Shown: in pieces, positions 10,561 through 10,623 of the stretch
Layout: each line of letters starts with the position of its first letter
Position numbering within the stretch: the first letter of the stretch is position 1
Virus record (IMG/VR): IMGVR_UViG_2663762849_000017
Strand: one strand, 5' to 3'
From: a virus
Lineage: Duplodnaviria; Heunggongvirae; Uroviricota; Caudoviricetes
DNA: 11,721 bases
Notes under the pieces: model-generated
The model's database searches: none
The model's input: only the letters and a program-made list of their open reading frames with translations
What the model was told of the DNA's origin: nothing
Translations under genes and position numbers: made by a program

Positions 10561-10582
10561 AAACATAGCAACGGCTATGTTT
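10561..10582. promoter_or_regulatory. MntR-type operator: perfect inverted repeat AAACATAGC-N4-GCTATGTTT
   Basis: The 9-bp arms are exact reverse complements and match the MntR box architecture described at E. coli mntH, as I recall it. It lies 33-54 bp upstream of the sitA start, just downstream of the putative -10. Confidence 0.7.
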
Positions 10583-10609
10583 TATAACATAACCTATACA
10601 GAATGAAAA
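10581..10609 (-). promoter_or_regulatory. Putative sigma70 promoter of sitABCD (-35 TTTTCA, 17-bp spacer, -10 TATAAA on the minus strand)
   Basis: Hexamers read on the minus strand. The -35 overlaps the Fur-box-like sequence and the -10 abuts the MntR palindrome. Confidence 0.4.
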
Positions 10610-10623
10610 TGATTATCATTAGC
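10605..10623. promoter_or_regulatory. Fur-box-like sequence GAAAATGATTATCATTAGC
   Basis: 16 of 19 positions match the Fur consensus GATAATGATAATCATTATC. It overlaps the putative -35 of the sit promoter. Confidence 0.65.

Follow-up and report, generated by a model that had tools for sequence, protein, structure and literature searches.

A prophage-borne sitABCD promoter of Escherichia coli with probable separate operators for Fur and MntR

The transporter operon sitABCD is carried by an 11,721-nucleotide stretch of Caudoviricetes DNA (IMG/VR record IMGVR_UViG_2663762849_000017, hereafter the window), which is the right end of a lambdoid prophage at icd in Escherichia coli. Our examination of the region upstream of sitA indicates, with a probability of about 0.9 and on the evidence of its sequence, that this is the native sigma-70 promoter of the operon, containing two non-overlapping metal-repressor operators, one for Fur and one for MntR. 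Dual Fur/MntR control is already known: Fur has been located experimentally on the identical 19-mer in E. coli, and MntR and Fur act on the orthologous promoters of Salmonella and Shigella. What can be considered mildly new is the conserved tandem layout of MntR boxes, the decay of this layout in E. coli, and a base at position 10587 that is unique to the window. The sense strand for the sitA promoter is the minus strand; coordinates of all the features are listed in Table 1.

Results

A perfect palindrome of the MntR type upstream of sitA

The initial annotation of this DNA, based on the letters alone, had reported a perfect 9-N4-9 inverted repeat at the sit promoter. This repeat, which we call box B, is indeed present at 10561-10582, spanning 54 to 33 bp upstream of the sitA ATG. 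It reads AAACATAGC-AACG-GCTATGTTT, with 9-nt arms that are 100% complementary and a 4-nt spacer. Compared to the MntR consensus AACATAGC-N4-GCTATGTT, box B matches 16 of the 16 specified bases and adds one further symmetric base on each side. The consensus published for enterobacterial MntR, 5'-AACATAGCnnnnGCTATGTT-3' (PMC1698941, citing Ikeda et al., 2005), is contained in it exactly, and the mntH operator of K-12 has the very same half-sites. A symmetric position weight matrix (PWM) for MntR was built from five palindrome-like K-12 sites, upstream of mntH, dps, mntS/rybA and mntP (two sites). With this matrix box B scored 29.5 bits, or 27.1 bits with mntH left out, the K-12 sites scoring 24-32 bits. 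It was the top position of the window, with the runner-up at 5.6 bits, and in about 72 kb of K-12 sequence scores above 15 bits were found at the training sites only.

Perfect inverted repeats with 9-nt arms and a spacer of 0-10 nt are in themselves not rare: by chance, a window should contain 0.62 of them, and the AT-rich intergenic stretch of 927 bp 0.1 (P of about 0.07). Any 9-arm repeat is thus weak evidence, and the significance of box B comes from its specific sequence and not from its palindromy. The only other perfect 9-arm inverted repeat in the window lies at 11632-11654. The specific MntR pattern, allowing up to 3 mismatches, had 0 occurrences in 200 dinucleotide-preserving shuffles of the window. 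Every chromosomal E. coli, phage and IMG/VR copy that we examined had a perfect, unchanged box B, even where neighbouring bases had been substituted. The presumed regulator is also widespread, as 5422 of 5426 complete E. coli genomes have mntR. When IMG/VR was searched for the palindrome, 15 contigs were found: 11 were sit promoters, three had its half-sites in an unrelated context, and in one it was apparently inside a coding sequence. In those three contigs (L102 1238-1259, L106 9375-9396 and L113 1075-1096), AAACATAGC-N4-GCTATGTTT stands just downstream of a TTGACA-containing sequence, with no recognisable Mn-related gene nearby. A literature search for the half-site AAACATAGC returned unrelated primer-type matches only.

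An extended Fur operator matching a site bound in vivo

The second operator was assessed against the 19-bp Fur consensus GATAATGATAATCATTATC, or an array of NATWAT hexamers. The 16/19 match claimed in the initial annotation is correct for the plus strand, where the letters at 10605-10623 are GAAAATGATTATCATTAGC. Along the sense strand of sitA, the minus strand, the same 19-mer is GCTAATGATAATCATTTTC and the value is higher, 17/19, with overlapping matches shifted by 6 bp in addition. The Fur pattern, at up to 3 mismatches, had 0 occurrences in the 200 shuffles. A Fur PWM was seeded with the consensus and refined on 14 K-12 intergenic regions (fepA-fes, fepD-entS, fepB-entC, fhuA, fecI, cirA, fiu, tonB, exbB, feoA, sodA, fur, ryhB and mntH). 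The core 19-mer scored 25.07 bits and was the top match of the window; training sites scored 15.7-24.7 bits in-sample and 7.6-22.7 bits when left out one at a time. Of 174,392 background positions, one reached 25.07 bits, and since the background held the homologous sit locus L001, this was perhaps the same site. The shifted matches scored 21.9 bits (10611-10629, minus strand) and 18.8 bits (10599-10617, plus strand), which is the overlapping-hexamer pattern typical of an extended Fur operator. Scoring with PWMs, a check proposed together with the initial annotation, thus placed both the Fur and the MntR site at or above bona fide K-12 sites, and neither below threshold.

Direct evidence for this operator comes from strain CFT073, in which chromatin immunoprecipitation with sequencing (ChIP-seq) of Fur puts sitABCD in the direct Fur regulon (PMC7157518; Banerjee et al., 2020). 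The supplement of that study reports a peak height of 526 at sitA (c1600) with the motif GCTAATGATAATCATTTTC, which is letter for letter the Fur 19-mer of the window. In the CFT073 fur mutant, sitB, sitC and sitD were up 20-, 16- and 8-fold, respectively (PMC7157518). A Fur pan-regulon study, using ChIP-exo in nine strains, found sitABCD to be Fur-regulated in two of three pathogenic strains (PMC10164565). The CFT073 locus resembles the window closely: it has the prophage-at-icd context and the layout tail fibre, sitDCBA, icd fragment and ycgX, and it shows no difference in the Fur box, the -35, the -10 or the MntR palindrome. It differs by a few substitutions in the upstream MntR box (box A, described below) and upstream of the Fur box, by a frameshift in sitA, and by a different gene, for a 256-aa hypothetical protein, between sitA and the icd fragment. 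MntR was outside the scope of the ChIP-seq study.

Geometry of the predicted promoter

We enumerated -35/-10 pairs directly on the sitA strand. The best-scoring pair combines a -35 with four of six consensus bases and an extended -10, separated by a 17-nt spacer (Table 1). The Fur 19-mer covers five of the six bases of this predicted -35, and the palindrome covers the final two bases of the predicted -10 and continues downstream. The placement given in the initial annotation, Fur over the -35 and the palindrome downstream of the -10, therefore agrees with the best predicted sigma-70 pair. The corresponding start site would fall at about 10572-10576 on the minus strand, so that the Fur core would lie at about -49 to -31 and the palindrome over the start (Table 1). 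The two operators are separated by a gap of 22 bp, and thus both proteins could bind simultaneously. The sit promoter was not called on the minus strand by a generic promoter scan, because its -10 ends in A and not in T. In the orthologous promoters of Salmonella, Klebsiella, Citrobacter and Shimwellia, TTTTCA or TTTCAT is kept inside the Fur box. A TATAAA or TATATA junction between two MntR boxes is likewise conserved in orthologues.

Table 1. Features of the sit locus and its promoter in the window (positions in nucleotides; ranges of minus-strand elements may be given in the 5' to 3' direction).
Feature	Position	Strand	Remarks
Tail tip protein J	700-4287	+	
Tail fibre	4340-6406	+	
sitBCD block	7079-9614	-	
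sitD	7079-7936	-	with sitB and sitC, encodes the ATPase and two permeases
sitC	7933-8790	-	
sitB	8787-9614	-	
sitA	9614-10528	-	periplasmic Mn/Fe-binding protein; first gene of the operon; RefSeq annotation of near-identical loci
Promoter/leader segment	10529-10665	-	accompanies sitA in every genomic context examined
MntR operator (box B)	10561-10582	-	perfect palindrome AAACATAGC-N4-GCTATGTTT; about -8 to +14, counted from the predicted start
Decayed MntR box (box A)	10580-10601	-	CTGTATAGGTTATGTTATAAAA; upstream of box B, at an offset of 19 bp; shares bases with the spacer and the -10
Predicted extended -10	10589-10581	-	TGtTATAAA; hexamer TATAAA at 10586-10581, TG at 10589-10588; best-scoring pair
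Predicted -35	10609-10604	-	TTTTCA (4/6); best-scoring pair; 17-nt spacer to the -10
Fur operator	10599-10629	-	core 19-mer GCTAATGATAATCATTTTC at 10623-10605; overlapping matches shifted by 6 bp at 10629-10611 and 10599-10617

Operators of sitA promoters across clades

Promoters of 80 SitA-encoding loci from other species were compared. Boxes of the type ATAGC-N4-GCTAT were found just upstream of sitA in 20/20 Enterobacterales promoters. A Fur-like box at an equal offset was found in most Enterobacteriaceae (among them Salmonella arizonae, Citrobacter, Klebsiella, Raoultella, Shimwellia, Enterobacter, Buttiauxella, Atlantibacter and Phytobacter), and the Pantoea sitA promoters had no Fur-like box at that offset. 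The Rhizobiales orthologues (among loci L023-L082, at about 1300-1500 of each locus) carry TGCAAATCATTTGC-like boxes of the Mur/MRS type and no MntR box, the Photobacterium orthologues have a strong Fur box only, and MntR-like boxes stand upstream of sitA in some Burkholderiales (Corticimicrobacter and Pollutimonas). This clade-by-clade distribution indicates that sitA promoters carry operators in keeping with the regulators that their host clade has.

The closest characterized relatives fit the same picture. According to reviews and papers (PMC3852070, PMC8970401, PMC7478841), sitABCD is repressed both by MntR and by Fur in Salmonella and Shigella. The sitABCD operon of S. Typhimurium SPI-1 is orthologous to that of the window, has its elements in equal order, and is repressed by MntR and Fur (Ikeda et al., 2005, via reviews); for the S. 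arizonae orthologue, the alignment with the window is column for column across the Fur box, TTTTCA, GCTATA and the palindrome. Unlike the window, Salmonella has an imperfect box B (TAACATAGCAAAGGCTATATTC, 27.4 bits), a weaker Fur box (18.6 versus 25.1 bits with the K-12 PWM) and SPI-1 instead of a lambdoid prophage as its context. For the sit locus of Shigella flexneri, the likeness, consisting of repression by MntR (Mn) and a location in horizontally acquired DNA, comes from a review (citing Runyen-Janecky et al., 2006) and not from sequence. The rhizobial sitABCD encodes an orthologous transporter, its SitA being 64-76% identical, and has a Mn-responsive operator just upstream of sitA. By contrast to the window, the regulator is the Fur-family protein Mur, acting on MRS boxes with a different motif (PMC1698941).

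A non-homologous promoter, that of K-12 mntH, offers a further parallel. It is under dual Fe-Fur and Mn-MntR repression (PMC3852070, citing Patzer and Hantke, 2001) and carries separate MntR and Fur sites, plus an OxyR site (PMC8632737). Its sequence reads GAATTTGATAATCATTCTC-N15-AAACATAGCAAAGGCTATGTTT, with the Fur box upstream and the MntR box downstream. It thus shares with the window the half-sites AAACATAGC/GCTATGTTT, the Fur-then-MntR order on the same strand, and the logic of a Mn importer. Promoter and gene are, however, non-homologous to those of the window, the spacing between the starts of the Fur and MntR sites is 34 bp versus 41 bp, and mntH has the OxyR site but no tandem box at a 19-bp offset.

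A decayed upstream MntR box and base 10587

All 20 of the 20 Enterobacterales sitA promoters examined contain two MntR boxes at a 19-bp offset, and the -10 arises where the two meet, GCTATAAAA. The upstream one, box A, has two core mismatches in the window and scores -3.4 bits. Its scores elsewhere are 3.9-6.1 bits in other E. coli alleles, 8.4 bits in S. arizonae and 8-21 bits in Pantoea and Buttiauxella. One of the two core mismatches is position 10587, which is A on the plus strand and T on the sitA strand, giving GTTAT for GCTAT. This base belongs to the right arm of box A and is at the same time the 'n' of TGnTATAAA. Across a 401-bp comparison it was the sole difference from the closest genome. 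An 81-bp query matched 1251 E. coli records, all of them at less than 99% identity, and this base occurs in none of these, nor in any phage or IMG/VR copy that we inspected. It could be either a genuine lineage-specific substitution or a sequencing error.

Another allele was seen on a plasmid of ATCC 11775 (L098, 1601-1821). There the upstream core is intact (ATAGCTTCTGCTAT), the downstream box has one core mismatch (ATAGT, 23.5 bits), and the Fur box is weaker, at 16.8 bits. Judged from these operators, the chromosomal and plasmid copies of sit may differ in their metal responsiveness.

The operon moves together with its promoter

Similarity among sit copies in the prophage of the window, at other chromosomal sites and on ColV-type plasmids spans the promoter and ends near 10665, most database matches covering query positions 1-266 only. 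Among sequenced lambdoid phages, 27 have the operon together with this promoter, the identity being 99.5-99.9%, and so do 11 IMG/VR viral contigs; in the single phage inspected, Escherichia virus Lambda_4C10 (L100, LR595861.1), sit lies between the tail-fibre region and the integrase. The sit operon is thus phage cargo able to move by lysogeny. The similarity through the promoter, together with the wide distribution of mntR, suggests that the cassette brings its own promoter, recognised by core regulators common to the Enterobacterales. The initial annotation had described the promoter as embedded in horizontally acquired DNA and yet wired to host regulators. The boxes for Fur and MntR are there as described, but this does not imply any rewiring after acquisition, since operon and promoter travel as one unit, and other Enterobacterales, which share Fur and MntR, have these boxes too. 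Among the sit contexts compared, we found no signs of operators evolving after acquisition.

Surroundings of the operon in the window

The window is 99.7% identical, across 98% of its length, to the chromosomes of several human E. coli. A spacer with 33% G+C (10667-11450) separates the sit promoter from the 3' fragment of icd that is found at about 11456-11608, at the right side of the window. This AT-rich spacer contains an open reading frame (ORF) at 10722-10961 on the plus strand, encoding 79 aa from a TTG start; searches of Pfam and NCBIfam gave no match for it or for the neighbouring small ORFs. The other perfect inverted repeat mentioned above, at 11632-11654, is G+C-rich, stands just past the icd stop codon and is followed by a T run. 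We read it as the stem of the icd terminator. The icd fragment and this repeat mark the junction of prophage and chromosome at the icd integration site, and CFT073 is arranged alike.

At the left side, 485-895 contains a 71-aa ORF, which in a near-identical genome is annotated as essD, a phage lysis protein, and which stops exactly at the start of the ORF for the tail tip protein (gpJ). The initial 65 residues of the gpJ ORF fall outside the match to the TipJ profile. Strain 82.0311, unlike the window, has a complete set of tail genes upstream of J. This arrangement suggests an internal deletion or recombination in the lineage of this prophage.

Discussion

Repression by Mn-MntR and Fe-Fur through two separate operators, as originally predicted from this DNA, is backed by the PWMs, by positional conservation, by the CFT073 ChIP-seq and fur mutant data, by the published MntR consensus, and by the reviews. 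The prediction had called this repression independent. That holds in so far as the sites do not overlap, and it has to be qualified by reported metal cross-talk, in which Fe acts through MntR when Fur is absent (PMC3852070). If the predicted geometry is right, Fe(II)-loaded Fur dimers over the -35 would block the binding of RNA polymerase, and Mn(II)-loaded MntR, extending from inside the -10 over the predicted start, would block open-complex formation or promoter escape. Full expression of the operon would then be expected only at low iron and low manganese, with either metal alone causing repression. The promoter belongs to the mobile sit cassette, and that it works in E. coli is explained by the place of Fur and MntR among the core regulators of enterobacteria. 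What we infer here are the precise positions of the -35, the -10 and the start site, the occupancy of the window allele by MntR and the steric mechanism of repression.

Several points weigh against the dual-operator promoter. The predicted -35 is weak, with four of six bases, the start site is a predicted one, and the generic scan made no call for the sit promoter. The experimental support comes from other alleles and species and not from the window allele; the action of MntR on sit rests on reviews and sequence, and in the accessible literature we found no data on MntR dependence of the E. coli sit operon. Finally, box A, conserved elsewhere, is decayed in the window, and this decay means that Mn repression could be weaker than in other species.

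The last two of these points lead to an alternative that we consider improbable, namely that Fur alone controls the E. coli allele and the MntR palindrome is a relic, its tandem box for cooperative binding having decayed. Box A scores -3.4 bits in the window compared to up to about 21 bits in orthologues with two good boxes, and the direct in vivo evidence at the E. coli sit operon concerns Fur only. Box B, however, is perfect, and its invariance amid substitutions in the chromosomal E. coli, phage and IMG/VR copies suggests purifying selection. In K-12 mntH, which is stated to carry separate MntR and Fur sites (PMC8632737), we found a single MntR-like box with identical half-sites. In S. arizonae box A is weak as well (8.4 bits), yet sitABCD of S. 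Typhimurium is reported to be MntR-repressed (PMC3852070, PMC8970401, PMC7478841). That the Fur and MntR matches are chance similarities in AT-rich intergenic DNA, with no regulatory role, has next to no probability in our estimation. The intergenic region does have 33% G+C, which gives a perfect 9-arm palindrome, whatever its letters, a P of about 0.07 there, but neither specific pattern appeared in the 200 shuffles, the PWM scores are at the upper end of the range of true sites, both sites are positionally conserved across genera, and a ChIP-seq peak sits on the identical Fur 19-mer in CFT073 (PMC7157518).

The palindrome might instead act at the RNA level, as a hairpin in the 5' leader of the sitA transcript, resembling an attenuator or terminator. 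A scan for terminator-like structures does flag the minus strand at 10582-10561 as a stem of 9 pairs with a 4-nt loop, followed by the T-rich tail GTTCTAATTT, and the RNA of the palindrome folds into that hairpin with -9.8 kcal/mol. This fold is nevertheless no better than that of shuffled sequences (z = -0.95), 41 of 200 shuffles being at least as stable. Only three of the nine stem pairs are G-C, and the tail GUUCUAAUUU is not a clean U run. With the predicted start inside the palindrome, the transcript would moreover lack the 5' arm. The half-sites recur at the non-homologous K-12 promoters of mntH, mntS, mntP and dps, the ATAGC/GCTAT core is kept where the spacer varies, and in Salmonella, Citrobacter and Klebsiella the arms are non-complementary (TAACATAGC...GCTATATTC). 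We regard the RNA hairpin as very improbable. As an intrinsic terminator or leader hairpin the site was rejected, as no stable G+C-rich stem with a U tract, exceeding what composition alone provides, was found. The preferred explanation thus remains a sigma-70 promoter with separate Fur and MntR operators.

Within this explanation, the tandem boxes allow a more tentative proposal on the history of the promoter. The ancestral Enterobacterales promoter may have had tandem MntR operators, of which the upstream one decayed in Escherichia, Salmonella and Citrobacter, with a further core base lost in the window. If the binding is cooperative, more Mn would then be needed for repression, and control would have shifted towards iron and Fur. 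We hold this to be possible but rather doubtful. If it is true, the decay of the tandem box would amount to a minor polymorphism in how a virulence-associated transporter is regulated.

Since the raw-sequence reading recovered a dual-operator promoter that was already documented, its value is mainly that of a positive control. Of further value is the evidence for operon and promoter moving jointly, both on inducible lambdoid phages and on plasmids, and the tandem MntR-box layout and its decay in E. coli may help in the annotation of sit promoters and in strain comparisons of sit expression. SitABCD helps to supply manganese and iron and to resist oxidative stress in pathogenic E. coli, Shigella and Salmonella, and the integration of two metal signals at the sit promoter explains the induction of the operon in the host.
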